This document shows, one piece after another, positions 1-50,183 of a stretch of 64,000 bases of DNA. The translations under genes were made by a program, and so were the position numbers. Below the pieces are notes generated by a model. That model did not search any database, was not told the origin of the DNA, and saw only the letters and a program-made list of their open reading frames with translations. The stretch comes from a virus: IMG/VR virus record IMGVR_UViG_3300045988_147522. One strand, written 5' to 3'. Numbering within the stretch: position 1 is the first letter of the stretch; each line of letters starts with the position of its first letter.

Positions 1-1746
1 CCTGATTTAGCAAGACAAAAGTATCCGAAATTGTTTTATTACTATGATGGCTTGTTAGGTATTAAGCATGCACAGTCGGTACATCCAGCAGGAATTGTTA
101 TTAGTCCAATTACTTTAGCTGACAATTACGGTGTGTTCGAGAAAGATGGCTACTGTACTCTTCAGATTGATATGGATGAAATTCATGATGTAGGGTTGAC
201 CAAGTATGATTTGCTTGTATTAAAGACAGTGCAAGTTATTAGTGAAACTTGCAAATTCGCTCATTTACCTTATCCAAAATCTCACGAGATTGATTGGGAT
301 GATCAAAATGTATGGGAAAGCATGTTAGAAACTACAGGTTCTATTTTTCAGTTTGAGTCTCCATTTGCTATAGATTGTTTAAAAAAATATAAGCCTAAAA
401 GTATTTTGGATATGGCAATAGTCACGGCTGCTATTAGACCATCAGGTTCTTCTTACAGAGAGGAGCTATTTAAGCATATACCTCATAAAAATCCGTCAGA
501 GGTTATAGATAAACTGCTTAATAAAAACAATGGATATTTAATATTTCAAGAGGACACAATTAAGTTTCTTCAAGAAATATGCGGACTGTCGGGCAGCGAA
601 GCTGACAATGTGCGTAGAGCAATCGGACATAAAGATGAAAAGAGATTGGCTAAAGCATTGCCGTCAATACTTGAAGGTTATTGTCATAAATCAAACTCTC
701 CAAGAAATGTTGCAGAACTGGAAGCTAAAGAGTTTCTTCAGATTATTCAAGACAGTGCCAGTTATCAATTTGGTATGAATCACGCCATTGGATACTGTAT
801 GATTAGTTATTTGTGTGCTTATTATTACTACTATTATCCGTATGGGTTTTGCACAGCATATTTAAACTGTGCAAAGAATGATGAACAAATACAGACGGGA
901 GAAAAAGCTGCTAAAGCAAAAGATATTGAAATTACATTACCTAAATTCGGAATTTCGTTAGGAAACTATTATTTTAACAAAGACCTTCATGCAATTGCAA
1001 AAGGTATTGGTTCAGTTAAGTTTTTATCTGAAGAGGTTGCCACAGAACTTTTTAAAGTTTACAACCAACAACCGACCAGTTTTATAGATGTAATTCGTCT
1101 CTCTGACCAAGAGACTTCTGTGGGACTATCTAAAATAGAAATTTTAATTAAAATAGGTTTCTTCGACCACTACGGAATTCAATCGAAACTATTATACATA
1201 CTTGCAACTTATCAATTCTTTAGAGCATCTACCGGCAAGGGATTTCGCAAGAATATTAAGAAGTCCGTATTACAAACAGAGCATTTTGAATTGTACGACA
1301 TAGTAAAAAATAATAGTACAGACTTAAAGAAAGATAACACTATTAAAGAATCGTTCACTATTCAAAACATAGATAACATACTAAATGGCATCGAAACTAT
1401 TGCAAATCAAATGAATTTCAAGTCTTGGAATTATAAACGCATTATTCAAACACAGGAAGAATATTTGGGGTATATTGATTTAACCACACACAAAGCTGAA
1501 GATAGGCAGAAACTGCTCGTAAAGAATGTCTACCCTCTTAAAAACAAACAAACTAACGAGGAATTTGCAAAAAGAATTTCGTATCGTTCGGTTGGTACTG
1601 GAAAAGAAGGAAGTTTAACATTAAAACACTATCTTTTTGTATCATTGCCATTGAAACAATATGATGTAATTTATGTGCCTTTAGATGGTATTTACAAAGA
1701 TAGAAGGGGGTATTGGAATTTAACCAAATATAAATTGCTAAATTAA
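1..1746 (+). CDS. DnaE-type DNA polymerase III alpha subunit, C-terminal portion (5' end outside window)
   Basis: Frame is open from nt 1 (PDLARQKYPK precedes the listed Met at 31). DnaE-like motifs HPAGIVISP, FQFES, LIFQEDT, RRAIGHKD, FGMNHAIGY. Confidence 0.8.
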   Translation, partial: PDLARQKYPKLFYYYDGLLGIKHAQSVHPAGIVISPITLADNYGVFEKDGYCTLQIDMDEIHDVGLTKYDLLVLKTVQVISETCKFAHLPYPKSHEIDWDDQNVWESMLETTGSIFQFESPFAIDCLKKYKPKSILDMAIVTAAIRPSGSSYREELFKHIPHKNPSEVIDKLLNKNNGYLIFQEDTIKFLQEICGLSGSEADNVRRAIGHKDEKRLAKALPSILEGYCHKSNSPRNVAELEAKEFLQIIQDSASYQFGMNHAIGYCMISYLCAYYYYYYPYGFCTAYLNCAKNDEQIQTGEKAAKAKDIEITLPKFGISLGNYYFNKDLHAIAKGIGSVKFLSEEVATELFKVYNQQPTSFIDVIRLSDQETSVGLSKIEILIKIGFFDHYGIQSKLLYILATYQFFRASTGKGFRKNIKKSVLQTEHFELYDIVKNNSTDLKKDNTIKESFTIQNIDNILNGIETIANQMNFKSWNYKRIIQTQEEYLGYIDLTTHKAEDRQKLLVKNVYPLKNKQTNEEFAKRISYRSVGTGKEGSLTLKHYLFVSLPLKQYDVIYVPLDGIYKDRRGYWNLTKYKLLN

Positions 1747-4586: not shown

Positions 4587-5297
4587 ATGAAGCAATTTGC
4601 AAAAACAGTGTATGTTAGCCACAAATACGGTGGTGACAAAAATAACCTCAAAGAGGTTGAAGAAATAATTAAAACACAACAAAAGAAACATCCGAATTAT
4701 ATGTTTATTTCACCGTTACATATGTTCAGCTTTCTGTATGACGATATGTCTTATGAAGATGGGCTTGAACTTTGCCTATATCAGCTTGCCGAGTGTGATG
4801 AAATATGGGTAACAGGCGAAAAATGGTACGATTCGACAGGTGTTATTAAGGAAATTGAGTACGCAAACGCACATAAAATTGATGTTTTATTCGTAAAAAA
4901 TGCAGAAGATAATCCGCACAAAGTTGAAGGTTATGATTATGTCAAAGGTTTGATTGATGGAATAAAGACAAACAAAGTTAGTAGCGATAAGACACCTGTA
5001 CCAGTAGCACCAGTTATACATAAATATAACAATGGATGCGAGAACACTAAAAGTGCATACATAAATGAGGACAATATTATTCGTACATATATAGCTCGTA
5101 ATGTTGTTGATCCTTTTGCAGGGAATTTTATGAATATACGTAGTGTGCAGATTCTCACCAAATGTCCTTTCTGCAAATCTGTAAATAAAATCACACTTAA
5201 GGATAGAAGTCCAGTAAGCATACCTTGTAACAATTGTCATAACTTGCTTGACTTTAGTCATCTTATATTTGGTGATATTCTCAGGAAGAATGGGTGA
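4587..5297 (+). CDS. DUF4406 / nucleoside 2-deoxyribosyltransferase-like protein with C-terminal zinc ribbon
   Basis: VYVSHKYGGD...ISPLHMF...LAECDEIWVTG...STGVIKEIEYA pattern. C-terminal CPFC...CNNC. Confidence 0.4.
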   Translation: MKQFAKTVYVSHKYGGDKNNLKEVEEIIKTQQKKHPNYMFISPLHMFSFLYDDMSYEDGLELCLYQLAECDEIWVTGEKWYDSTGVIKEIEYANAHKIDVLFVKNAEDNPHKVEGYDYVKGLIDGIKTNKVSSDKTPVPVAPVIHKYNNGCENTKSAYINEDNIIRTYIARNVVDPFAGNFMNIRSVQILTKCPFCKSVNKITLKDRSPVSIPCNNCHNLLDFSHLIFGDILRKNG

Positions 5298-7400
5298 CAG
5301 GTATGAAAGTAATTAAACGAGATGGTCGAGAAGTTGATTTTGACCGCAATAAGATTATTTCTGCAATTGGAAAAGCAAACAGTGAATCCCATGTAAACCA
5401 CGAAAAAACATTGTCTGATGATGAAATTAAAAATATTGCTACAAGAATTTATGTCAAGCTCAGACGAAGTAAGAGAATTTACTCAGTTGAAGATATACAG
5501 GACTTAATTGAAGAATACATAGATAAATACGGCTGTTTTTCTTTGGCAAAAAGATACACACTTTACCGATACAAGCAGAGTTTAATCCGTAAGAAGAACA
5601 CTACTGATGATGCAATCCTTTCACTGATTGATTTAAGCAACGAAAACATCAAACAGGAAAACTCAAATAAAAACCCCACTATCATTCCTACACAGCGTGA
5701 CTATATGGCTGGTGAGGTCAGTAAGGATTTGACTGATAGAGTTTTACTTCCTCAAGATATTGTTGAGGCTGACAGAGAAGGAATTATTCATTTCCACGAC
5801 AAGGATTATTTTGCACAACATACTTATAATTGCTGCTTATGTAATCTTGATGATATGCTCCAGAACGGAACGGTTATCAGTGGCACTATGATTGAGAAAC
5901 CACACAGTTTTTCAACGGCTTGTACAATTGCAACACAGATTATAGCTCAGGTCGCCAGCAGTCAATATGGTGGACAGAGTATCAGTCTTACTGCTCTCGC
6001 ACCGTTTGTGGATATTAGCCGACAGCACATTAAAGATGGGTTGAGAAGAGAATGGAGTCAGTGTGGATTTGAAACTGACGAAAATAAGATTGCCGAGATA
6101 GCCGAAGAAAGACTTCGGAAGGAAATTAACAAAGGTGTTCAGACAATCCAATATCAAGTAGAAACACTTTTAACAACTAATGGACAAGCTCCTTTCATCA
6201 CAGTGTTTATGTATCTTAATGAAGCTAACAATGAGCAAGAGAAACACGACCTCGCTATGATTATCGAAGAAACACTTAATCAAAGGTATGAAGGTGTAAA
6301 AAATGAAAAGGGTGTATGGATTACACCTGCGTTTCCAAAGCTTATTTATGTGCTTGAGGAGGATAACATAACAGAGAACAGCAAGTATTGGTATTTAACA
6401 AAATTAGCTGCAAAGTGCTCGGCTAAAAGGCTTGTTCCAGATTATATATCCGAAAAGGTGATGAAAAAGCTAAAAGAAGGAAATTGTTTCCCTTCGATGG
6501 GTTGTAGAAGCTTTTTATCACCGTACAAAGAAAATGGTGAATACAAATTTTATGGCAGATTCAACAAAGGCGTAGTTACAATCAATCTTGTTGATGTAGC
6601 CTTATCGTCAGGTAAAGATAAAGAGAAGTTTTGGAAGATTTTCGATGAGAGATTGGAGTTGTGTCATAAAGCCCTCTTGTGCAGATATGAGAGGTTGAAA
6701 GGAACAGTGTCGGATGTAGCTCCGATTATTTGGCAACACGGTGCATTAGCAAGACTTCAGAAAGGTGAAACCATTGATAAGTTACTTGTTGGTGGTTATT
6801 CGTCAATATCACTTGGCTATGCAGGATTGTATGAGTGTGTAAAGTATATGACAGGCAAATCTCATACAGATCCGGAAGTAACACCGTTCGCACTTGATAT
6901 TATGAGATATATGAACAAAAAGTGTGATAAATGGAATGAGCAACTTGATTTAGGTTTTTCGCTGTATGGTTCTCCAATTGAAAGCACAACTTATAAATTT
7001 GCAAAATGTTTACAGCGAAGATTTGGTATTATCGAAGGTATTACAGATAAAAACTATATCACAAATAGTTATCATGTAAATGTCAGAGAGCCTATTGACG
7101 CCTTTGCAAAACTGAAACTTGAATCACAATTTCAGGCATTAAGTTTGGGCGGTGCAATTAGTTATATTGAAACTTCTAATTTGCAAAATAACACAGAAGC
7201 TGTCCTGTCTGTTATGCAATTCATCTACGACAATATCATGTATGCTGAGCTCAACACTAAAAGTGATTACTGTCAAGTGTGCGGATATGACGGAGAGATT
7301 GAGGTAATAGAAAATAAAAACGGTAAACTTGTGTGGAAGTGTCCAAACTGTGGCAACACAGATGAAAGTAAATTGAACATCTGTCGGAGAACTTGTGGGT
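5294..7400 (+). CDS. nrdD: anaerobic ribonucleoside-triphosphate reductase, exon 1
   Basis: ATP-cone N-terminus (VIKRDGREVDFDRNKI), class III RNR body and a CQVCG...CPNCG zinc site. It ends ...RRTCG inside the glycyl-radical motif. Confidence 0.9.
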
Positions 7401-8166
7401 TTGCTATAAGCCCACTTTAAACCGAATAAACTGCGGGGAAGTCCCCATAACCTTAATGGCTACAACATAGCTGGAAACGGCAAGTGTGAATGCGGTATAG
7501 GATTAAATCTGTCAGTCCGATAGGATAGAAACCATAAAAACATTAAGCAAGGGATTACCGAGTGTGCAAGTCACTCTTACGCAACGAAACTCCTTAACAG
7601 GCAATGCTGATGGAGGACGCTCAACGACTATAATTTCGGGGAATTGTTTCTTGCTTATATAAAAAGAGAAAAAGAGGGGCGTAGTAAATAATAAAAGAAA
7701 TTAATGATTATACGGGGTATTTTATTTCCGATACTGGAGAAGTATTTTGCAATTTAGGAAGGGGAAATCGAAATAGAGGAAAAATTATTCCTTTGTATAA
7801 GCTAAAACCTCGCATGACAACGAATGGATATGCTCGCATTTGTGCCAGACAAAATTCTACTGGCAAAAGAAAAGATTTATATATTCATCGACTTGTGGCA
7901 GAGAATTTTATCCCAAATCCTCATCATAAACAATATGTTAATCACAAAAACACTATTCGTAATGATAATCGAGTAGAAAACCTCGAATGGTGTACAGCAA
8001 AAGAAAACACTGAATATACATTACAAGTCAATCATGTTATAAGAAACCCTAACAACGGACAATATATCAGTAATTATACATACAAAGCATAAATTAAGTT
8101 GAAGAAACAATGAGATTGTATAGTCTACTCCCCTAATAAATATCGGGAAACCGAGGGTATAAAAGG
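7401..8166 (+). mobile_element. group I intron in nrdD
   Basis: Exon 1 ends in U. GUGGGU (7395-7400) pairs with GCCCAC (7410-7415), giving P1 with a U.G at the splice site. The last intron base is G (8166). Hairpins GGGG-AAGU-CCCC (7435-7446) and the GNRA hairpin UCGG-GAAA-CCGA (8143-8154). Splicing restores RRTCGYIGT. Confidence 0.75.
7688..8092 (+). CDS. intron-encoded HNH homing endonuclease (NUMOD4-like N-terminus)
   Basis: HNH motif HHKQYVNHKNTIRNDNRVENLEWCTAKEN. The conserved N-terminus EINDYTGYFISDTGEVF lies upstream of the first canonical start (TTG 7793). The frame opens at ATA 7688, 8 nt after GAGGGG. Confidence 0.7.
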   Translation: MIKEINDYTGYFISDTGEVFCNLGRGNRNRGKIIPLYKLKPRMTTNGYARICARQNSTGKRKDLYIHRLVAENFIPNPHHKQYVNHKNTIRNDNRVENLEWCTAKENTEYTLQVNHVIRNPNNGQYISNYTYKA

Positions 8167-34930: not shown

Positions 34931-37900
34931 TTACAAGTGCCTATTATTAACAGTATAAGACATAAGTTTTTTGATAGTGTTATTCATAATCTTTTCGGAC
35001 TCCTTGTGCAGTGCATTAACAGTAGCCTGAGTAGCATCACCTTGTACATTGATGTGAATTGTAGGGGAAACAACAGTTGATTTATTGTTCACGACATTCG
35101 GTGTTATTTCAGAACCAAACTTCTGTGCAAAATAATCAGTTGGAGCTGATGCAAATTCAAACAATTCATTTGTCATCGCTTTGCTAAATACAGGATTGCC
35201 TTGTGGTAAGATTGTATATCTGCCATTACCAAGAGATGTAGGAATAAGTTCTGAACCGATACCCTCTTCGTCAACAATAGACAAACCACCTTTGGCTGAT
35301 TTTGTACCAGAAGCATACGCTTTCATTTTAGACCATAAAGAACCTGCTGGTAGCGCTCTTCCGCCATACCAATCTTTACTAATCCGACTTATGAAATATG
35401 TTTCAGCGTCCTCTTTGTTCGTTTGGTTGGTTTTATACACTTTGCCGTTATAGGTAATTGTATACCCATGACCTGTTATACTCGATGGTTGTATTTTAAC
35501 TGAATCAATCTTTGCTTTAGTGGTCTGTGCAGAATTACCCAACTCGTCAATTTTTTGCTTCAAACTATCAATTCGAGAAGTGTAGTTATCAATGCTTCCT
35601 GTCACATTAGCAATAGCAGAGTCTACATCGTAGATACGAGATTGTAGTGTATTCATTAAATCCATAACATTGAGCTGCGCAGTGCCATATTCATAAAGAG
35701 CACTTTGAGCCGACTGCCACATATGGTTAAACTCAGCCTCTGTGGTTGTAGTGTAATTTTGACAATACCACAACAGGTTGTTATACAATGTACCATTGTC
35801 ATTGTCAATCATATTACATGCAGCTCTGTGCAAAGATACCTCGTTGTTTAAGAAATCTTGAATAGTTTGGATTTCATCATCATAATGCTTATCTGTCTCT
35901 TCTTTCAGTTTATCTAAAGCTTCTTTGCGAGTATCATACTGATAGTCTGATAGATAATCATATAAGTCTTCTCTGGACTCAACCAAATCATCAACATTTT
36001 CTTTGTGAGCCTTTTTACCTGCGGAACTATCGTCCAGTCCAGTAATAGCAGCAGACAATGCGTTTGAAGCAACAGCATTTTCTTTCTCTTTGAGTTGTTT
36101 GTTGAAATCAGCTTCTTCTTTTTCTTTGTCAAGAAGTTCTTGTTTCTTTTCAATAAGTTCGTCAATTTTATCTTTGCGTTCTTGTAGTGCATCTATTTCG
36201 TCCTGCTTAGTCTGTTTAATGTACTTTTCTGTCCAATCGACTAAACTTTCAATCGCAGACAACGCATCCTCATAACCACTTTTAGTATCTTCTAACGCTT
36301 CTTTTTTCTTTTCTAAAGCGTCTTTACTTTTCTCAAGAGCTTTTTCTTCCTTTTCTATCTGCTTTTTGTACTTCTCCGAAGCAGAAGTAGCTTCGTCTGT
36401 AGAAGTAGACAAGTCACTTAATGAAGAAGCATACGAATCAATCAAAGCGGCTTTCTTACGCCAAGCAGACTCTGCCTGAATAACCGTTTGTTGATATAGC
36501 GTACCTGTGCCTTGTTCAGCGTCTTTAGCAGCAGCAGTTGCATATGCTTCTTTCCATTTTTTGTCCGCCAAATTAGTAGCCGACTTTGCAGCGCTGTCTT
36601 GACTCTTTTGAAGATATGCTAAAGCCTGTGTCTCATTTTTAAGTTTGCCTACTTCGTCAATTGCTTCTTGTAAGTAAGAAGCTTTCAGTCTTTCTAATTG
36701 AGCTTTGGCTAAATCTCTAAATTTTTCAGAAGTTAAATCAAGTTCGCCTTGTTCATTAACAAGTAAATTTATATAAGAGTCGTCTAACGACAAAACCGCT
36801 TCCAGAGTATCAAAAGATAATTTTCCGTTTTCGTTATATTCGTTAATAGCAGTTTTGACAGCCTTAAAAGCCGATAACACAGAAGTAACTTTTTTTGTGG
36901 CGTCTTCTGTAGATACTTTAAAAGTAACCTTATCTTCTGCTTCTTTTTTTATGTCTTTAACAGCTTTTTTTATGTCCTCTAAAGAACTAATATTATCTTT
37001 TTTGTTATACAACTTAGAGATCGTATTAAAATCCAGACTTTGCAAATACTCTTTGGTTTTGTCTTTTTGTTCTTTGGATACTTTATTTATCAGATCTGTA
37101 TTTTTTTTGGTGTATTCTTTTACTTTGTCTTGCCATTCTGATAATGTAAAGTCTGCCGTATCGGTATCGCAAGAAATCTGATAAACTATTTGTTTATCGT
37201 CATTTGACAATCCATCTATCCACTCGTTGAATCCTTGAATTTCTTTTTGAGCAAGAGATATAGCTCCGTTTGTGCCCAAATAGTGCATAGTTTTTGCAGT
37301 ATGATCTGCTGTGTCGCCAATATCAGCAATAAGGTTTTTTATCTTAACGCCATCAATCTCGATGCCTTTAGTGTCTAATTTTAATAAATCTTCGTTAGTC
37401 CATCCCTCGCCAGCTTCGTCAATAAGACTCCAAATGTATTCGTACACGGTGTCCGCATCCAACAACACTGCTCCGTCAGGCGTTTGTAGCATTGGAGAAA
37501 AAGCGATTTCCACACCATCAAAGGTATCCGATCCAGCAAATACAGTAGAAATTGTGCCTTTCATGTCTTTTACAGTAGAACCCCATGACTCTATCGCAGT
37601 TTTGTACTTTTCTAAATTAGAATCTGTCCATTCTAAGACTTCACGATTGTTGGTGTCAATATTGCCAAATACTGTTTGTAAAGGATTAACACCCATGTTC
37701 GCTGCTTCCTGTTGTATCTCTTCCAAACCAGTGCCATCAGCAAACTGTTCCTTGATACTACGAACAAAATTATTCGTATCAACTCCGCCCAGTTCAACTG
37801 GTATTGCAACAGGTATAATACCATTAATCGTTGATGTATTTTTAGCAGCAGATTTAGTATTATGGGTTTGTTTCGTTGCACGGTTGACAAGATTAGCTAT

Positions 37901-39475
37901 TGCGTCATCTATGTTTACATTATCAGCGACCTCGACATCTGAAAACAAAAGTTTTACAAACAATGCTTTTGTATCTGTATCTATACCGTCAACGCTTGAT
38001 AATACTTTTTTGATCTGATTACTCAAATCTTGATAATTTGATATATCAATCTTACCATTTTTAATATCGTCTATTTTAGACTGCACACTGCTTAATGTGT
38101 CAGCTAATTTTGGATTATCAAACGCTTTAATTATATCAGATACGGTTTGTTTAACTTTTTCTAAATTATCTGCTGTACTCGCTTCAGGATCAACAATCTT
38201 ACTGTAGAAGTTATCCCATGTGGCACTATTTATATATTGTTCAATAAGAACTTGACTTTTACTATCTAATGTGCTAAACTGCTCATTAGTATAGTGAATA
38301 TACGCATCAAGTACAGGCTTAAAACTATTGTTTACCAAATCGTTAATTTGACGCTTTAAAACGGATTGCTGGTTTTTGACTGCCGATATTATGGTAGATA
38401 AGTCTTTTTCGTCTATCTCATCATAAAGATAAGACATACCATACTCTGTACCGCCACCAGTCTTAACAAGATCTTCAATACCAGCACCTTTTAACGCTTT
38501 ACTTAAAGCAGGAGTTAATTGAGTATCTTTTTTTTTATTAAGATTCTGCACAAATTGGTCGAGTGCTTTAATTTGGGTGATGTAAGTTTCATCATCTGCA
38601 CCCCACATACCTTGATTAGTCCAGATGTTTTCTAACGCTTTGCCAATACTATCCTGCTCTTTAGACACGATAGTTTCGTAATAAGCATTCTTTTCATTAG
38701 TCATTGCCTTGTTAAGAGCTTCAACATTGTTTTTACACTCTAAGATAGCGTCATTCTGGGCTGAGTAACCTTTTACCAAGCCCGGATACATCTGTGCAAT
38801 CTCATTAGAAAGTTCAATATATCTCTCATACTGAGTAGAGGTTAAAGAGATATTTTCTCCATAAGAATTAACACCATCAGCTAATTCGTAATATTCATTT
38901 TTGATTTTGTTTACAGATGCTGAATGAGATGTGTAGGCATCTTTTTTGTCGTTAATCTCTGTTGTGATTTTTTCAAGGTCTGATAGGTTATTTTCAGCTC
39001 TGTTGATGTAATTATCAAGTGCTTCAAAACCAAAAGAAATTGCAGTCATTACACCTTGTATAATAAGCATATTACCAATACCTGCGGCAATATTCTTTAA
39101 CGAAGAGCCTAATGAAGATAGCTTGCCTTTAATGCCTGAAAAAGCACCAGACATTGATTGAGCATTTTTACTTAAGAGATTCTCTGATTCGGCATAATCT
39201 GTGTTGTATTGTATGCCTTTTAATAATTCTTGGTTTAAATCTTTAGTAGCTTCTGCAAATTTTGACTGCTTGAGTATATCTGCTTCATTAGCAGTTACTG
39301 CATTTTTTAAAACCTTGACATCTAAGCTTTCAGCGTAGGTTTTATATTCTTTATATTTGTCAATAGCCTTGTCAATATCTTGCGTTGCTCTGGCTTTGGC
39401 AGCCGTAGTAAACCATCCGATGTGTTTACCATTATCACTGTCTAAGTATGTTTGGAGTATCTTTCTCTTAGACAC
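34931..39475 (-). CDS. tape measure protein, distal part (1514 aa)
   Basis: Gly-zipper hydrophobic segment, >1000 aa of coiled coil, and a TMP-type C-terminus (GGLSIVDEEGIGSELIP...GRYTILPQGNPVFS). GTG start without an SD. Confidence 0.75.
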   Translation of the reverse strand: MSKRKILQTYLDSDNGKHIGWFTTAAKARATQDIDKAIDKYKEYKTYAESLDVKVLKNAVTANEADILKQSKFAEATKDLNQELLKGIQYNTDYAESENLLSKNAQSMSGAFSGIKGKLSSLGSSLKNIAAGIGNMLIIQGVMTAISFGFEALDNYINRAENNLSDLEKITTEINDKKDAYTSHSASVNKIKNEYYELADGVNSYGENISLTSTQYERYIELSNEIAQMYPGLVKGYSAQNDAILECKNNVEALNKAMTNEKNAYYETIVSKEQDSIGKALENIWTNQGMWGADDETYITQIKALDQFVQNLNKKKDTQLTPALSKALKGAGIEDLVKTGGGTEYGMSYLYDEIDEKDLSTIISAVKNQQSVLKRQINDLVNNSFKPVLDAYIHYTNEQFSTLDSKSQVLIEQYINSATWDNFYSKIVDPEASTADNLEKVKQTVSDIIKAFDNPKLADTLSSVQSKIDDIKNGKIDISNYQDLSNQIKKVLSSVDGIDTDTKALFVKLLFSDVEVADNVNIDDAIANLVNRATKQTHNTKSAAKNTSTINGIIPVAIPVELGGVDTNNFVRSIKEQFADGTGLEEIQQEAANMGVNPLQTVFGNIDTNNREVLEWTDSNLEKYKTAIESWGSTVKDMKGTISTVFAGSDTFDGVEIAFSPMLQTPDGAVLLDADTVYEYIWSLIDEAGEGWTNEDLLKLDTKGIEIDGVKIKNLIADIGDTADHTAKTMHYLGTNGAISLAQKEIQGFNEWIDGLSNDDKQIVYQISCDTDTADFTLSEWQDKVKEYTKKNTDLINKVSKEQKDKTKEYLQSLDFNTISKLYNKKDNISSLEDIKKAVKDIKKEAEDKVTFKVSTEDATKKVTSVLSAFKAVKTAINEYNENGKLSFDTLEAVLSLDDSYINLLVNEQGELDLTSEKFRDLAKAQLERLKASYLQEAIDEVGKLKNETQALAYLQKSQDSAAKSATNLADKKWKEAYATAAAKDAEQGTGTLYQQTVIQAESAWRKKAALIDSYASSLSDLSTSTDEATSASEKYKKQIEKEEKALEKSKDALEKKKEALEDTKSGYEDALSAIESLVDWTEKYIKQTKQDEIDALQERKDKIDELIEKKQELLDKEKEEADFNKQLKEKENAVASNALSAAITGLDDSSAGKKAHKENVDDLVESREDLYDYLSDYQYDTRKEALDKLKEETDKHYDDEIQTIQDFLNNEVSLHRAACNMIDNDNGTLYNNLLWYCQNYTTTTEAEFNHMWQSAQSALYEYGTAQLNVMDLMNTLQSRIYDVDSAIANVTGSIDNYTSRIDSLKQKIDELGNSAQTTKAKIDSVKIQPSSITGHGYTITYNGKVYKTNQTNKEDAETYFISRISKDWYGGRALPAGSLWSKMKAYASGTKSAKGGLSIVDEEGIGSELIPTSLGNGRYTILPQGNPVFSKAMTNELFEFASAPTDYFAQKFGSEITPNVVNNKSTVVSPTIHINVQGDATQATVNALHKESEKIMNNTIKKLMSYTVNNRHL

Positions 39476-39501: not shown

Positions 39502-39966
39502 ATGCTTGAAGTAGCAATATGTCCAAAATGTGGAGAAGTTAATTACCCTGCATTGGAATCATATAAGAAATGTTATTGTTGTTGGGTTGGTTTTCTTAAA
39601 AGACCTCGTAAATTGCTTTTTGAAGTTACAGAACAATTACAGCGAGAGCACTTTGAACGAGATGTTTTGGGAAGCAAAGAGGCTGAATATCTTTTTTGGT
39701 ATGAAAAATTCCTTAAAGACTGTCCTGAATATGATAATAGTCTATATGAAGAACACTTAAATAACAACAGACGCTGGGATTTAGTAACAAAACAACGACT
39801 TAATAAATTATCTTCCAAGCCAACTGTTAAATGTCCATATTGCGGTTCTTTGCGTACTACTAAAATTTCAACAAGTAGTAGAGTAGCTTCATCTCTCACA
39901 CTCGGCTTAGCAAGCAATAAGATAGGCAAGAACTATCAATGTAATGATTGCAAAGCCACCTTCTAA
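39502..39966 (+). CDS. double zinc-ribbon protein on the opposite strand between the tape-measure halves
   Basis: CPKCG...CYCC and CPYCGS...CNDC. SD GAAGGTG, with its own terminator. Confidence 0.55.
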   Translation: MLEVAICPKCGEVNYPALESYKKCYCCWVGFLKRPRKLLFEVTEQLQREHFERDVLGSKEAEYLFWYEKFLKDCPEYDNSLYEEHLNNNRRWDLVTKQRLNKLSSKPTVKCPYCGSLRTTKISTSSRVASSLTLGLASNKIGKNYQCNDCKATF

Positions 39967-40327: not shown

Positions 40328-43300
40328 TTACGCTACTTTCTCAAAATAGATAGGCATACTCCTAAAACCCGTCAATTTGGGTTTACCCTTGTCGCTTCCC
40401 ATTAATCCAGACAAAACGCCAGATATAGAAAGAGTACCAATGTTTGCTCCAAGATGAGAGAGCAATTCATTAGCTTGTGTTAAAAATCCTAACAATCCAG
40501 AGCCAGTATCAACTACGCCTTTAACAATATCACTTGATACTGTTGTTGTTGATAATTCCTGCCACTGTGCCTGAAATTGTTTTACTTTACCTTCGATACT
40601 ATCTATGTACTTTTCGTGTTCCTTTAATGCAGAACCATCTGAGTTCTTGGATGTATCTAATGAATTGATTGCTGTACCAATGTTTTGAATTACAGCAGAA
40701 GCGTAGTTAGACCTGTTCTTACCGGCGATAAGCTCAAGTAATGACGCTTTATTTTTATCAGCCAATTCATCCCATACGAGAGCGATATCTTTAAGAATAT
40801 CATAAGTGCTACGGAATGAACCATTGTCCATAATATCCACGCCTGAAGACGAAGAAGTTTTTGTTAAAGCTTTGATTTTGTCTTGAAGCTCAGAAGTTGT
40901 TGTGCACATTCCTTCCGTATCTTCTCCAGCCTTTTTAAGCTCCACCGACATACCTCTTAATCTCATAGCAAGCACTTTAAGTGCATTACCTGATTCATCT
41001 GCACTCTGTGTAACTTCGGTCATTGCGGTCAGCAACGCAATGGTTTCATCAAGGCTATTACCCGCAACAGCCATAGATGCGGCTGAGTTCTTCAAGCCTT
41101 CGCCTAAATCACCTGACGAGACAGCGTAATTATTACTCACCTCATTAAGTTTATCGACAATGCTTTGTGCCGATGAAGCTTCCATATTAAAAGCTTTTAA
41201 TATGGAAATAATGTCACTACTTGCTTCACCAACACCATCCAAATCGTCACCGACATTAGCATATATGGTTGCTACCTCTGCCAATTGCGTTGAGTCAGGT
41301 ATATCATAACCCATACGAGCAAAATCAGCGGTACTTGTAACAAAGTCACTAATAGTAGTACCCAGCTCTTTTGCTTTGCCAGTTGCCGTAGTTAAATATT
41401 TGTCATATGTCGAATCGGTGCTGTCTGTAACTTTCTTAAGCTCCACCATAGCAGTGTCTAACTCGGTTACAATGTGTATCATGTCTTGAACAGTAGCAAT
41501 AGCTTTATTCATAGACGAAGTGATAAAATTCCACGAACCATATTTAAGATAGTTCTTTGCAAGTGTGCGTAGAGCGGTTGCACCCATCAATCCAGCAGAC
41601 TCGGCAGAAGTCTTAATATTTGCAAACTGTGACTGGAAAGATTTAAGCTGTTGGCTACTGACTTTTGCAGCATCTGATGTTTTATTTAAAATGGTTTCAA
41701 TTTGTCCAGCATATTCTTGAGCAGCTTTAGGATTGCTACTCGCAAATTTCATAACCTGCAAACGCAGTGTTTCTACTGCTTTGCTGCTTGCGATTGTGCT
41801 TTTACTTGCGGTTTCTAAACTCTGACTCCATTTAGTTTCAAATTTATGTAAAGCAGCATTATTTCCAAGCTTACCAGTTACTTGATTTGTAGCGGTTATT
41901 TCTTCGTTAAGTAATTGAAATTTTTGGAGGTAGTCACTAAGTTCGTTTTTAAAATTGTCAGGAATATTGTGTCCGTTAAGTAAAGATGTTGTTTGCTGAC
42001 GCAAAGCTCGCATATTAGCCAAATATTTATCCAACTGACTATTATTAATAACCTCGCCTGAGCCATTTAAAATATCATAATGATATCCTTGCGCTTTGCC
42101 AGTTGCGTTGGCAGTATTGAGCTTTTCTTTAATATTGTTAATCCTACTTTGAAGCTTGTCTATAAAAGAATCATCTGCACCATTCCATACACCATTTTCA
42201 AGTAGTTTTTCACATTCTTGGCGTATATCTTCCAAGTCCGCTTTTGCTTCTTGTAATTGTCCTTCGGGGATAAACGCTACATTTTTACTGCGGTTTTGAA
42301 TGTCATCATATACTGTATCAATATCACTCCGAATCTTTTCTATTTCAGAACGATTGTTGTTTACAGTATTAGAGATAGAGGTCGATAACGCTTGTGCCTC
42401 TGTCGCAAAAGACGAAAGAAGTTCTTTTGGTACATCTTCTCCATTATTCCACATATCACCAATAATATCTTTTTTAGATATGAGGGTTGTAAGTTGAGAC
42501 CATGCAGTACGATATTCAGACACAGTTAGCAAGCTTTTGTTTTGCTCTTGCGTTAATTGATTAGTTGTTTGTGATACAAGAGCTTCTGCGTCTTGAAACT
42601 CCTTTAAGGCAGCAGTGCTTTCTGTAATAACAGCCAATTGACTTTGTAACTCGGAAGCGGATATTTCATTTGTGCGACCAGTAGGAGATACTACACGACT
42701 CCCTGTATCAATAAGTTCCTGTAATTCTGCTTTAGTTTTGTCTATAGACTCAGCACTAATTACACTATTTGAATTATGACTCTCAAGGATAGCATATAAG
42801 GATTGGGCAGTTTGAATAATATTATTAATTTCATTAACACTCTGTCTGCCTTCTGTATTGATTGCAGTTACATCTTGCAATAATTTTACAACCTTTTGGC
42901 TCAAATTGTCTAAATCAGCGACAGGAATTTCCAACCCTTGAGATAATGACTGTTCTAACTGTCTTCCTTCAGAAGCCAAACTTCTTGATACCGTAAGAAA
43001 TTTCTCAATATCTTGTGTATTTAAAAACTGATATCCTTGTTTTTGAAGGTTTAAACCGCCAATAATGCTTTGGATTCTGCTCTGAATCTGAGATAGCTCT
43101 TTTGCAGTTTGCTGATAATTTGTCACATCGGCTGTCGTCCGATTGCTATTATTATTCTTGCTATATTGACTACGAGATGCTTTGACTGTATTTCCAGTAA
43201 CACCAACCGAAATACTACCAATTGCTTTTTCAATGTCTTTCTTCAAAGACTTCATCGCGTTACTACAGTCAAACTTTTTAATTGTAACTACTGGAATTTT

Positions 43301-43531
43301 TGGAGGGTTTTTAAGAGATTTTTCAAATAGTGTCTGAACGCTCTTTTTTAATTGGTCTTTGGCTTGCTTGCTCTGATCGGCTTCTATATTATATATTTTA
43401 ATACCGTCAATAGCTTTAGCTAATTCTCCAACACTCTTTTTGAAAATTTTCTTGTCTTCGTTTCTTGTTCCAGCGATCACTTGGACGGAAATACCAAAAA
43501 TATCATTTTCATTTGCCACACATACCACCAC
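40328..43531 (-). CDS. tape measure protein, proximal part (1067 aa) with TP901-type core
   Basis: AKELGTTISDFVTSTADFARMGYD...SSGDLGEGLKNSAASMAVAGNSLDETIALLTAMTEV...NALKVLAMRLRG, then a Gly-rich hydrophobic tail. Confidence 0.8.
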   Translation of the reverse strand: MVVCVANENDIFGISVQVIAGTRNEDKKIFKKSVGELAKAIDGIKIYNIEADQSKQAKDQLKKSVQTLFEKSLKNPPKIPVVTIKKFDCSNAMKSLKKDIEKAIGSISVGVTGNTVKASRSQYSKNNNSNRTTADVTNYQQTAKELSQIQSRIQSIIGGLNLQKQGYQFLNTQDIEKFLTVSRSLASEGRQLEQSLSQGLEIPVADLDNLSQKVVKLLQDVTAINTEGRQSVNEINNIIQTAQSLYAILESHNSNSVISAESIDKTKAELQELIDTGSRVVSPTGRTNEISASELQSQLAVITESTAALKEFQDAEALVSQTTNQLTQEQNKSLLTVSEYRTAWSQLTTLISKKDIIGDMWNNGEDVPKELLSSFATEAQALSTSISNTVNNNRSEIEKIRSDIDTVYDDIQNRSKNVAFIPEGQLQEAKADLEDIRQECEKLLENGVWNGADDSFIDKLQSRINNIKEKLNTANATGKAQGYHYDILNGSGEVINNSQLDKYLANMRALRQQTTSLLNGHNIPDNFKNELSDYLQKFQLLNEEITATNQVTGKLGNNAALHKFETKWSQSLETASKSTIASSKAVETLRLQVMKFASSNPKAAQEYAGQIETILNKTSDAAKVSSQQLKSFQSQFANIKTSAESAGLMGATALRTLAKNYLKYGSWNFITSSMNKAIATVQDMIHIVTELDTAMVELKKVTDSTDSTYDKYLTTATGKAKELGTTISDFVTSTADFARMGYDIPDSTQLAEVATIYANVGDDLDGVGEASSDIISILKAFNMEASSAQSIVDKLNEVSNNYAVSSGDLGEGLKNSAASMAVAGNSLDETIALLTAMTEVTQSADESGNALKVLAMRLRGMSVELKKAGEDTEGMCTTTSELQDKIKALTKTSSSSGVDIMDNGSFRSTYDILKDIALVWDELADKNKASLLELIAGKNRSNYASAVIQNIGTAINSLDTSKNSDGSALKEHEKYIDSIEGKVKQFQAQWQELSTTTVSSDIVKGVVDTGSGLLGFLTQANELLSHLGANIGTLSISGVLSGLMGSDKGKPKLTGFRSMPIYFEKVA

Positions 43532-43532
43532 C

Positions 43533-44039
43533 TTATTTCAACTTTGCTATAATTTTTGTTGTAATACTTTTTTTGAAGTCTGAATTGTTTAGTTCTGCTC
43601 TCGTTGACGCTATAGGATTACGAACCCCCATAAAAGCATATTTTTTGGCATCATATCCGATAGCTCTCCATAAGTCAGAGGTGTAACTATATCTCTTTCT
43701 GGTATATCCATTCCGACCATATCCTGCTATCCAACGAATCAATGCGTCCGATGTAGTGGTTGGCACTTGATGAGTAACAACTGAGCGGTTTGGTGTTGCG
43801 ACAGAAGTTATGATAATCTTATTGCTCTCTTGGGACACATCTTGAATTTGGGAGCTGCTTCCTAAGCCATTCACACTACGCCTTACATAAGTTGTAGGAG
43901 TATATGTATCATAAATATCTGCTTTGATATTTTTTCTTAATTTGTCTTTAATATCTTGAGCAATATCGGTTTTTAAAACCTGAGAAGCCGCCTTGTTAAT
44001 TGCTTTGACAAATGTGTCATACGAATTGAAAGTCTTGAT
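43533..44039 (-). CDS. tail protein in the chaperone (GT-like) position, no canonical start
   Basis: The frame is open from 44051, directly after and in frame with the TAA of the upstream ORF. The first canonical start (GTG 43874) lies 59 codons in. ATC 44039 is 8 nt after AAGGGG. Confidence 0.5.
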   Translation of the reverse strand: MKTFNSYDTFVKAINKAASQVLKTDIAQDIKDKLRKNIKADIYDTYTPTTYVRRSVNGLGSSSQIQDVSQESNKIIITSVATPNRSVVTHQVPTTTSDALIRWIAGYGRNGYTRKRYSYTSDLWRAIGYDAKKYAFMGVRNPIASTRAELNNSDFKKSITTKIIAKLK

Positions 44040-44051
44040 ACCACCAGCCCC

Positions 44052-44699
44052 TTATTTAGCAGAAGGGAAGAGGGGAAGTGGACTGTTGTTTGGTTTATCT
44101 TCTTCCTCTTTGATAATGTGGTTTACCATATCCATCATCTTATTGAGGTCTACCTTATCGCCAATAGACGATATGTTTTCAGTTAATGCTTTAAACTGAT
44201 TCATAATTAATGCAGTTTCATAGGTCTTTTCGGAGATTTCCTTTTTCTGCATATATTCAATTCTCTTCTGAACACCTTCATATATTAACGCCAATTCTTT
44301 TTGATTGATTTTACTTTTAACAAACTCTGCAACACCTGTTTCTGTTACAAAAGAATACATTTTTTCAAAAACAGTAGGAATTGCAAAATTTGCATACTCT
44401 CTAAGAATCTGCATGTCAATCAATGTAGATGTGATTTCGGGAAGGTATCTATTTTCTGATATATCAAATACAGTTTCCGCTACTGTACTACAGATATTTG
44501 AAAGGCGTACTGCTCCGATAGTATGTTTAATTCTTAAAGAGATGTGTTCTATTTCTTCAGGCTTTTTATCATCTGTTGTTGCTGAATGAAATACATAATC
44601 ATAAAACTTTGGCTCATTTTTTTCTGCGTAATAAATTTTTCCAAAAGTCATTACTGGAATTTCTTTATAATCTTTTTTTTTATTTGTGCCTTTTTTCAT
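44052..44699 (-). CDS. tail assembly chaperone-like protein (position-based)
   Basis: ATG 44699 follows AAAGGA. The listed start at 44804 overlaps the RuvC-like gene. Two genes upstream of the tape measure. Confidence 0.5.
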   Translation of the reverse strand: MKKGTNKKKDYKEIPVMTFGKIYYAEKNEPKFYDYVFHSATTDDKKPEEIEHISLRIKHTIGAVRLSNICSTVAETVFDISENRYLPEITSTLIDMQILREYANFAIPTVFEKMYSFVTETGVAEFVKSKINQKELALIYEGVQKRIEYMQKKEISEKTYETALIMNQFKALTENISSIGDKVDLNKMMDMVNHIIKEEEDKPNNSPLPLFPSAK

Positions 44700-44712
44700 A
44701 TATAAAATCCTT

Positions 44713-45249
44713 TCATTCCTTGTGCCGTATATTAATGTTATGTACAGCATAATTTCCGATACAGATAGCATCCGAAATGTTATCGTTATCGGTATCAATG
44801 TCATATTTATTCTTTACATACTGCAACGATAGTATTTTACTTTGTTTTTTCGCTTTGTTATCGTTAGGAATAGTTGCAGTGATTTTTGCTTTAATTTCTT
44901 TACTTGTCCTGCTCCTTGCGTTGCAATAATTTTGCCACACAGAGGGTGATATGAGTTGGTATAAATAATGTTTTTTTTCACAGAGGTTAATCAATACGCC
45001 TTGTAACTGTGCCAAATTTTTAAATACTGATACATTAGCTCTCAAATTAATATCCTCAAGAAATACAACTGAGATCTTTCTCTTTGTGATAAGTTGACTA
45101 ATATACTTTTCAATCTCACAAACAGCCTCTGAAAATGTGTATTTACCATTAGGAAAACTAAAACTGCCATAGTCTACAAGCTTTTGCTTTTCGTAGTCGT
45201 ATATCGCCCAACCACCGTTGCGAGCCTGATCAACCGCTAAAATTCGCAT
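44713..45249 (-). CDS. RuvC-like Holliday junction resolvase
   Basis: MRILAVDQA (Asp), VVFLEDI (Glu), NISDAICIG (Asp). Confidence 0.7.
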   Translation of the reverse strand: MRILAVDQARNGGWAIYDYEKQKLVDYGSFSFPNGKYTFSEAVCEIEKYISQLITKRKISVVFLEDINLRANVSVFKNLAQLQGVLINLCEKKHYLYQLISPSVWQNYCNARSRTSKEIKAKITATIPNDNKAKKQSKILSLQYVKNKYDIDTDNDNISDAICIGNYAVHNINIRHKE

Positions 45250-45644: not shown

Positions 45645-46472
45645 TTATGCCTCAGCTTCGTCTTCAGGAATAACTACATAGAACTGTTCTTTATCTTTAG
45701 AACAATAGTTAGTCATACCTTCAAATTCGATAGGCTGTGTGCCATCTGGTTTAATTTCGAGTGAAAAATTGTTAGAAAGCTTTGCTCTTTCAAATACAAT
45801 AATTGTATAAATCTTTGTTGATGGATCACAAACATCATGACAAATGCTATCAAGAACAAAAGTACCAGCCTTAGAAAAGTTATCACTTGAGTTGGTAATC
45901 TTAACCGCATTCTCCATCTCACACTTATAGATAACAATAAATGTCATAGGAGAACCGTCTTCTCTCTTAACAGGGATATCATCACCAAGAGTGATAGTTT
46001 TACCAGCAATAGTGAAGTTTGTTTTATTTGTTGCAAGGTCACTCGCTGTGACTGCAAATTTCTCACCAAGACCGCCCTCTGTAGTAAGTGCCCAAATAGC
46101 TGTTACAGGACTTGTCGTGAGAGGAGTCCAGTTGAGTGTAATTGTTTTAGCAGTAGGGTTTGCCTCAAGAACATCTACCTTCTTGGTTACAACCTTCTTA
46201 TCAGCGGCACCAACTTCTTTCTTTGTACCCAACTGGTCAGCAAATACACCAAGATTAATAACAGAGTTAGATGCTGTAAATTTTGAAGTCTTAGTTCTGT
46301 CAAATGAACCAATTGTTGCACCGACATTATCTGTAGCATTTACTGCTTCGCCACCGCACTCAAGTGTGCCATCTTTAATCTGATTAGCTGTCCACTCAAT
46401 ATCGCCTGAACTAATGTCCTGCTTTGTAAGACGAGTAACCCTGTCAAGCACAAGATTGTCAATATTATACAT
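45645..46472 (-). CDS. major tail protein (probable)
   Basis: 275 aa, Thr/Gly/Val-rich beta-type composition, strong SD AAGGAGG, in the head-to-tail gene order. Confidence 0.55.
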   Translation of the reverse strand: MYNIDNLVLDRVTRLTKQDISSGDIEWTANQIKDGTLECGGEAVNATDNVGATIGSFDRTKTSKFTASNSVINLGVFADQLGTKKEVGAADKKVVTKKVDVLEANPTAKTITLNWTPLTTSPVTAIWALTTEGGLGEKFAVTASDLATNKTNFTIAGKTITLGDDIPVKREDGSPMTFIVIYKCEMENAVKITNSSDNFSKAGTFVLDSICHDVCDPSTKIYTIIVFERAKLSNNFSLEIKPDGTQPIEFEGMTNYCSKDKEQFYVVIPEDEAEA

Positions 46473-49577: not shown

Positions 49578-50120
49578 TTATCTATCGACTAATTTAACAC
49601 CAAGACTCTCTTCTAATCCCGTAATAACCGAAAGTGAATCAATTTCGTGATTCGCTACTGCATTGCGTGCTTTGTAACATACTGACATTCTCTGAGAGTG
49701 GTTTAATTTTGAAACAATTGCTTTAATCTCGTCGGAGGTTTTGTCAAACAATGTATCAAAGCCTTCAACTGTGAGTGCATTGGTGTAATATTTTTCAGCA
49801 TTAAGTACCTCAAGAACTAAAGTGTCCTCAAATAAAAACCAATTATTAGAAAAGAAGGCTTTATCTGTGGAATAGATTGACTTTACATCTGCAAATGTCA
49901 AATCCTGAACATCACCGAACTCTTCCCATATAAATTCTTCGTGAGTTCTTCTGTTCTGTGCAATAAGTTTACCCTGAAAGCCGTTAATTACAGGAATAAT
50001 AGCTTCAGACGGAAGTGTTTTTCTTAATTTAATATGCTGATTTTCCAGAACATCCATGTTTGCAGATGTTTTTGTTTTTGTCTTAGTTGTTCTGCGTGTT
50101 GTTGTAACTGCTGTTGCCAT
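49578..50120 (-). CDS. hypothetical head-module protein
   Basis: ATG 50120 follows GAAGGAAAGG. N-terminal Thr/Lys/Arg-rich tail. Confidence 0.5.
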   Translation of the reverse strand: MATAVTTTRRTTKTKTKTSANMDVLENQHIKLRKTLPSEAIIPVINGFQGKLIAQNRRTHEEFIWEEFGDVQDLTFADVKSIYSTDKAFFSNNWFLFEDTLVLEVLNAEKYYTNALTVEGFDTLFDKTSDEIKAIVSKLNHSQRMSVCYKARNAVANHEIDSLSVITGLEESLGVKLVDR

Positions 50121-50140
50121 TTGATTTATCCTTTCCTTCA

Positions 50141-50170
50141 TTGAAACGGGCGTAGTTTTAACTACGCCCG
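50141..50170 (-). terminator. intrinsic terminator after the major capsid gene
   Basis: GGGCGTAGT-taaa-ACTACGCCC, a 9-bp GC-rich stem followed by a U-rich tract. Confidence 0.6.
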
Positions 50171-50183
50171 AATATCAGTATCA

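Follow-up and report, generated by a model that had tools for sequence, protein, structure and literature searches.

Layout of the junction upstream of the tape measure gene

How does translation begin in a gene when no canonical start codon precedes its conserved N-terminus? This question is raised by two open reading frames (ORFs) directly upstream of the tape measure gene in a virus DNA of 64,000 nt (IMG/VR record IMGVR_UViG_3300045988_147522), referred to here as the window. All genes around the junction are on the minus strand (Table 1). An earlier, sequence-only reading had placed the second ORF in the same frame as the first (ORF-A) across one TAA. We confirmed this by translating 43533-44804 (-), which reads ...PLFPSAK-stop-GAGGIKTFNSYDTFVKAINKAAS... 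Past the TAA, the frame is open for 172 codons, 44051..43533 (-), to the TAA at 43535-43533. Its first ATG, GTG or TTG is GTG 43874, and the earlier count of 59 sense codons before it was correct in coordinates and arithmetic. In no other coding-strand ORF of the window is the first canonical start more than 20 codons past the upstream stop. Sharing a frame with the upstream gene has a chance of 1 in 3, and in the relatives it is not conserved. The feature beyond chance is the conserved N-terminus without a canonical start before it.

Two general causes were ruled out. A sequencing or assembly error at the start codon is contradicted by 41 contigs from independent human-gut samples, all of which carry ATC or ATT there. 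Genome-wide stop-codon reassignment does not apply, as the other genes are normal under table 11 with TAA as the common stop.

Table 1. Features of the junction and of the adjoining tape measure gene (window coordinates)
Feature	Position	Strand	Remarks
ORF-A	44052..44699	-	215 aa; TAA 44054-44052; likely start ATG 44699, Shine-Dalgarno GAAAGGA
Shine-Dalgarno AAGGGG	44048..44053	-	overlaps ORF-A TAA; 8-nt spacer 44047-44040 before ATC
Start-less stretch	43875..44051	-	59 codons without ATG/GTG/TTG; four spacer codons, N-terminal helix, DIYDTYTPTTYVRR
ATC, proposed initiation codon of the yomN-like gene	44037..44039	-	alignment with homologue Met1
yomN-like gene	43533..44039	-	168 codons plus stop; SPbeta YomN family (PF27376)
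GTG, first canonical start codon	43872..43874	-	internal Val codon; rejected as start
Tape measure-like protein (PhageMin_Tail)	40328..43519	-	PF10145 1e-25; phrog_4211 1.4e-81

The likely start of ORF-A has a Shine-Dalgarno (SD) energy of -9.4 kcal/mol. Syntenic homologues of ORF-A share 37-39% identity in three related contigs (L025, L027 and L029) and 83% in P0060. Searches of Pfam, PHROG and PDB with ORF-A gave no match, and its mediocre model (pLDDT 65.7) had no fold match in PDB. We also compared ORF-A with YomO and rejected that identity.

The second ORF is a YomN family gene

The 172-codon translation, searched exhaustively with HMMER, returned 58 homologues of 59-203 aa, almost all of 140-180. 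The family profile A2, made of 48 homologues with the window protein as first row, matched SPbeta YomN in hhalign (probability 98.9%, E 2.7e-17). In addition, a precomputed PF27376 (YomN) label was present on homologues P0002, P0003, P0004, P0009 and P0048; the Pfam copy used for our profile searches was without the PF27376 model. Members of the family occur in SPbeta-like phages of Bacillus, Staphylococcus, Geobacillus, Lysinibacillus and Alicyclobacillus, and annotated members in 28 phage records were all labelled 'hypothetical protein'. Stand-alone proteins of about 140-170 aa were found in the SPbeta-type tail modules of L002, L025, L027, L029 and SPbeta. Public gene calls with Pfam names on near-identical contigs gave the order YomX, YomW, YomV, YomU_Tube, 108-aa ORF, RuvC-like ORF, ORF-A, YomN and PhageMin_Tail tape measure. 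The profile match, the homologues and these neighbourhood labels together identify the second ORF, at the level of sequence, as an independent stand-alone gene of the SPbeta YomN family that encodes a tail-module protein.

We compared the gene with SPbeta yomN (NC_001884 SPBc2p037). The two proteins are homologous and similar in size, with N-termini of MAKTIKDI in SPbeta and IKTFNSY here. Both genes lie downstream of YomX, YomW, YomV and the YomU tube gene and upstream of the tape measure gene. However, SPbeta yomN has a GTG start and a 17-nt overlap with yomO, whereas the proposed start in the window is ATC; the upstream neighbour is YomO in SPbeta and an unrelated 215-aa protein in the window. 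The overlap in SPbeta (L101 8511-9414) places yomN in the +1 frame relative to yomO, and inserted genes, among them an integrase (yomM), separate yomN from the tape measure gene yomI. A simpler order, YomO-YomN-tape measure, was found in L035.

AlphaFold modelled the YomN-like protein with a pLDDT of 86.5 and a pTM of 0.83. A PDB sequence search with this protein gave no match, its clathrin matches (E ~0.2-0.6) being noise, and Foldseek against PDB gave none with the model. In BFVD, the fold matches were uncharacterised siphovirus proteins only. Among the viral fold matches, a 'tape measure chaperone' reached a probability of 0.23 and an E of 0.36 only. A literature search on the role of YomN or the structure of the SPbeta tail returned nothing usable.

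The 59 start-less codons have the character of coding sequence

We determined the selection on the start-less stretch in 25 unique sequences, derived from 41 contigs of a clade with 97-99% identity. The pN/pS was 0.13 in the 59-codon extension versus 0.19 in the remaining gene, and the yomN-like ORF was intact in all 25. The motif DIYDTYTPTTYVRR at 43878-43913 (-) holds the family columns Y47, Y50, P52, Y55, R57 and R58. Within the N-terminal half of the family, no other columns are invariant or nearly so, and all six are upstream of GTG 43874. Furthermore, the helix spanning residues 7-41 is the best-predicted helix of the YomN-like protein (pLDDT 93-97). Because of this purifying selection, family conservation and confident predicted helix, we regard the 59 codons, on sequence and model evidence, as real coding sequence that is translated. 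The sequence-only reading had argued as much from their protein-like character, and the comparison with relatives that it called for found the extension conserved and carrying the family's most conserved motif.

These data bear on one alternative, in which translation starts internally at a canonical codon (GTG 43874, or a TTG at codon 38 in some strains) and the codons upstream are an untranslated relic, left when the gene lost its ATG. GTG 43874 and the codon-38 TTG are the sole canonical starts, a weak AAGG is found 6 nt before GTG 43874, and the TTG variant, which is present in 8 of the 21 unique clade sequences, is the start chosen in the public gene call P0001 (135 aa). However, the pN/pS of the supposed relic is below that of the remaining gene, the invariant family motif and the confidently predicted helix lie upstream of GTG, and the frame is open in 25/25 unique sequences and also in L033. 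The codon-38 TTG, moreover, is polymorphic with TTA. An exclusively internal start is thus, in our estimation, very unlikely; shorter products from the codon-38 TTG or GTG 43874 are possible.

The start position of the family coincides with ATC 44039

The position of the family start was read from the alignments. For most of the 58 homologues, residue 3 of the protein is aligned with query residue 7, which puts their Met1 at Ile5 of the open frame. This Ile5, encoded by ATC 44039, is matched exactly by Met1 in about 55 homologues, and in alignments A1 and A2 the column of Ile5 is a nearly invariant M. In the relatives (Table 2), an SD of their own precedes the start, whether this is ATG (L001, L027), TTG (L029, L035) or GTG (L100, SPbeta).

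Table 2. Start of the yomN-like gene relative to the stop of the upstream gene
Source	Spacing and start codon	Frame relative to upstream gene
Window	AAATAA + 12 nt + ATC (proposed start)	same
L025 (syntenic)	AAATAA + 12 nt + ATG	same
L027	19 nt + ATG after upstream stop	different
L029	11 nt + TTG after upstream stop	different
L100	14 nt + GTG after upstream stop	different
L001	4 nt + ATG after upstream stop	different
L035	16 nt + TTG after upstream stop	different
SPbeta	GTG start, 17-nt overlap with yomO	+1

The SD before ATC 44039 forms a duplex with the 16S 3' end of -10.3 kcal/mol. On this scale, the median over 29 window genes is -11.3 kcal/mol, and a value of -9 or below is found at about 3% of background positions. 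The energy before GTG 43874 is -3.2 kcal/mol, at background level, which counts further against the internal start. The AAGGGG was invariant in the 41 contigs. An AUH codon therefore stands at the orthologues' start position, the SD is at a working distance (8 nt) with an energy within the range of window genes, and no canonical start would keep the conserved N-terminus. One of the three routes offered by the sequence-only reading, a start at ATC 44039 behind AAGGGG at an 8-nt spacing, fits all of the comparative data, including homologue Met1 and the ATG of L025.

AUH codons at the start position in the clade and in other relatives

At the start position, the codon was ATC in 30 and ATT in 11 of the 41 clade contigs; ATG was found in none. 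A more distant pair, L033/L034, whose ORF-A is 83% identical to that of the window, has TAA + 11 nt + ATA AAA ACT TTT (IKTF) with GAGGTGG just upstream, and this ATA is out of frame with ORF-A. An in-frame ATG at yomN codon 12 is also present there (L033 760-830, and L034), which is likely the pick of a gene caller.

L031/L032 carry a distant YomN homologue (P0009, 31% identity) with AAGGAGG + 8 nt + ATA AAA GTA TTT (IKVF). In L031 (394-420), the ATA at the family start position is behind a perfect AAGGAGG, and no upstream gene is found within about 90 nt of it. From its sequence, the L031 ATA may represent an AUH start that arose a second time, independently, in the YomN family. Counting against this AUH reading, the public gene call for L031 offers an alternative, a GTG without an SD, 24 nt further up and just 5' of AAGGAGG. 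AUH starts seem to have come up at least twice in this small family, once in the ATC/ATT/ATA gut-prophage clade and once as the ATA of L031, and to have been maintained stably.

Scans of IMG/VR and the metagenome set for intermediate relatives returned only the 97-99% clade, an IMG/VR search with the L033-specific junction found nothing, and two scans of GTDB species representatives found no relative. Near-identical copies were seen on human-gut contigs of 300-547 kb (L060, L063, L065, L071 and L074). The length of these contigs suggests an integrated prophage in a bacterial chromosome.

SD-directed initiation at an AUH codon is the favoured explanation

We consider it likely, from the sequence comparisons, that translation of the yomN-like gene begins by SD-directed initiation at a near-cognate AUH codon, probably aided by coupling to ORF-A termination. 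An ancestral ATG start would have changed to an isoleucine-type codon, which is ATC here, ATT in sister strains and ATA in the 83% relative. The AAGGGG overlapping the ORF-A TAA would position ribosomes, and the initiator tRNA would pair with the AUC 8 nt downstream of it. The predicted product has 168 residues and an N-terminus of fMet-Lys-Thr-Phe. As the ORF-A stop is only 12 nt upstream of the ATC, translational coupling probably lets ribosomes that terminate on ORF-A contribute to initiation. Starting from the observed start position, SD, N-terminal coding constraint and non-conserved frame, we infer that the AUC itself is decoded by initiator tRNA, that coupling to ORF-A termination contributes, and that, by analogy, the yomN output should be lower than from an ATG.

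NCBI translation table 11 permits ATT, ATC and ATA as initiators. Reporter assays in E. coli put initiation at AUA, AUC and AUU at 1-2% of that at AUG, with an N-terminal Met on the AUC-initiated reporter protein (Hecht et al., bioRxiv 10.1101/063800). Two points speak against an AUH start. First, an output of 1-2% of AUG is little for a protein that is conserved in a tail module, except where small amounts are what is needed or where coupling makes up the difference. Second, variation among ATC, ATT and ATA would also be expected of a plain internal Ile codon.

The only confirmed natural AUU starts in E. coli are those of infC and pcnB (Hecht et al., bioRxiv 10.1101/063800). As in these genes, the proposed near-cognate isoleucine-type start stands behind a normal SD in the window and is missed by standard gene finders. 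Unlike them, the yomN-like gene is a late structural-module gene of a gut-bacterium phage, and its codon drifts among ATC, ATT and ATA in the clade. The IF3 autoregulatory logic of infC is not evident for it. Nivinskas and colleagues, in 1992, reportedly described an internal AUU start in the phage T4 baseplate gene 26, which the proposed ATC start of the window resembles.

One point mutation would restore ATG, yet 0/41 clade contigs have it, so the weak AUH start may be selected rather than merely tolerated, with a set-point encoded in the start codon that would hold the protein to a few percent of the level of its neighbours. We regard such selection as possible but doubtful. If it applied, YomN synthesis might, by analogy with infC, be IF3-sensitive.

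Possible termination-reinitiation at the ATC

The strongest competitor is obligate termination-reinitiation, in which the ATC is used only by ribosomes that have just left the ORF-A TAA and re-scan as 70S. The SD would then merely retain ribosomes, so YomN output would be tied to ORF-A output. The geometry is compatible with this: 12 nt separate stop and start, the SD overlaps the stop, and YomN family genes generally begin 4-19 nt after the upstream gene or overlap it. In the minimum free energy (MFE) fold, moreover, the SD region pairs with C-rich sequence from the end of ORF-A, and such pairing would make upstream translation necessary. However, this hairpin was no better than shuffles (z -0.34; 66 of 200 shuffles folded as well) and was absent in L025. 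We therefore rejected a hairpin sequestering the SD as neither above shuffles nor conserved. The SD before the ATC also matches those of free-standing genes in strength. Finally, the candidate ATA start of L031 has no gene within about 90 nt upstream, which indicates that coupling is not needed there. Obligate reinitiation is thus unlikely, and termination-reinitiation coupling is a possible helper alongside ordinary SD-directed initiation at the AUH codon.

TAA read-through and a chaperone pair as alternatives

Another route in the sequence-only reading was read-through of TAA 44054-44052, giving an ORF-A-YomN fusion of about 387 residues with a G/GT-like function. The ORFs are in frame with no intervening stop, L025 is likewise in frame with the same 12-nt spacing, and the pair is directly upstream of the tape measure gene. 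The wider comparison does not bear this out. The frame is shared in 2 of 9 lineages (window and L025), which is about chance, and in L033, L027, L029, L100, L001, L035 and SPbeta the genes are out of frame or overlapping. L033, the 83% relative, keeps the N-terminus although its ATA does not share the frame of ORF-A, and read-through is thereby ruled out as the conserved mechanism. The earlier reading had suggested looking for fused ORFs in related phages. Among the 58 homologues the longest is 203 aa, so there are no natural fusions; the homologues are stand-alone proteins (100-203 aa) with their own start at the exact position.

UAA is the least leaky stop. The 64-kb window contains no tRNA gene (related contigs reach about 110 kb), and a suppressor would be costly because TAA is the common stop of this phage. 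The stop context is UAA-G, Rfam gave no significant match (sub-threshold chance matches only), and local folds were not above shuffles. In addition, the downstream gene has its own strong SD. On the whole, we consider read-through extremely improbable. A frameshift route from ORF-A was also rejected: numerous stops close both alternative frames across the 3' half of ORF-A, and X_XXY_YYZ sites occur at offsets 21, 78 and 309 only, none usable.

The sequence-only reading had assigned the two ORFs to the place of the tail assembly chaperones. The position stands. The pair is found between a tube-like gene (45645-46472) and the tape measure gene (40328-43531), an interval shared with a 108-aa ORF and the RuvC-like gene, and, as in the lambda-like gpG/gpGT pair, two small genes are immediately upstream of the tape measure gene. 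The rest of the comparison does not hold. Unlike gpG/gpGT, the two window genes do not overlap, and neither a -1 frame ORF nor a usable slippery site is present. Where gpG/gpGT use a programmed -1 frameshift, the second gene has its own SD and start throughout the YomN family. Searches of Pfam, PHROG and PDB found no sequence or fold similarity to known chaperones for either protein.

Consequences for annotation

Annotation is where this analysis is of most use. The YomN-like protein is truncated by gene finders restricted to ATG, GTG and TTG starts. P0001 (135 aa), a 90%-identity cluster with 202 member sequences, is without the first 33 of 168 residues, and a call at GTG 43874 would delete the most conserved motif of the YomN family. 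Similarly, two ORFs in frame across one stop beside a tape measure gene do not warrant a recoding call until the frame has been checked in relatives. AUH-start genes of the infC and pcnB type are already known; by sequence and analogy, the yomN-like gene of the window would be a further case. If the weak start is selected, it would be a case in which a start codon tunes stoichiometry within a phage tail module, and the YomN family would gain a testable property, a low-abundance requirement.

Other genes of the window

The SD before GTG 43519, AAGGTGGTGG, has an energy of -13.4 kcal/mol, versus -1.8 before the listed GTG 43531 of the tape measure gene. From these sequences, GTG 43519 is probably the start rather than GTG 43531, with the N-terminus MANENDIFG... 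The tape measure looks split in two, into ORFs 40328-43531 (-) and 34931-39475 (-). The 1067-aa ORF matches positions 507-944 and the 1514-aa ORF positions 2087-2504 of the 2625-position profile phrog_4211. A 154-aa ORF on the opposite strand (39502-39966, +), with no PHROG match, is located between the halves. The split layout was also seen in L002 and L025.

The gene at 44713-45249 (-) encodes a RuvC-like Holliday junction resolvase (phrog_159 7.6e-19; weak PF02075). It is inside the tail module, between tube and tape measure, and this placement is kept in the distant L025, L027 and L029. For the phrog_13983 gene at 49578-50171 (-), the listed ATG 50141 has no SD (+0.7 kcal/mol) and directly follows a GC-rich, terminator-like hairpin, GGGCGTAGTTAAAACTACGCCC; its true start may be elsewhere.

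On the opposite arm, 31-1746 (+) carries a DNA polymerase fragment (phrog_405) and 5294-7420 (+) an NrdD-like anaerobic ribonucleotide reductase (phrog_487 2.8e-198). The polymerase and NrdD-like genes fit a large SPbeta-like phage of an anaerobe.
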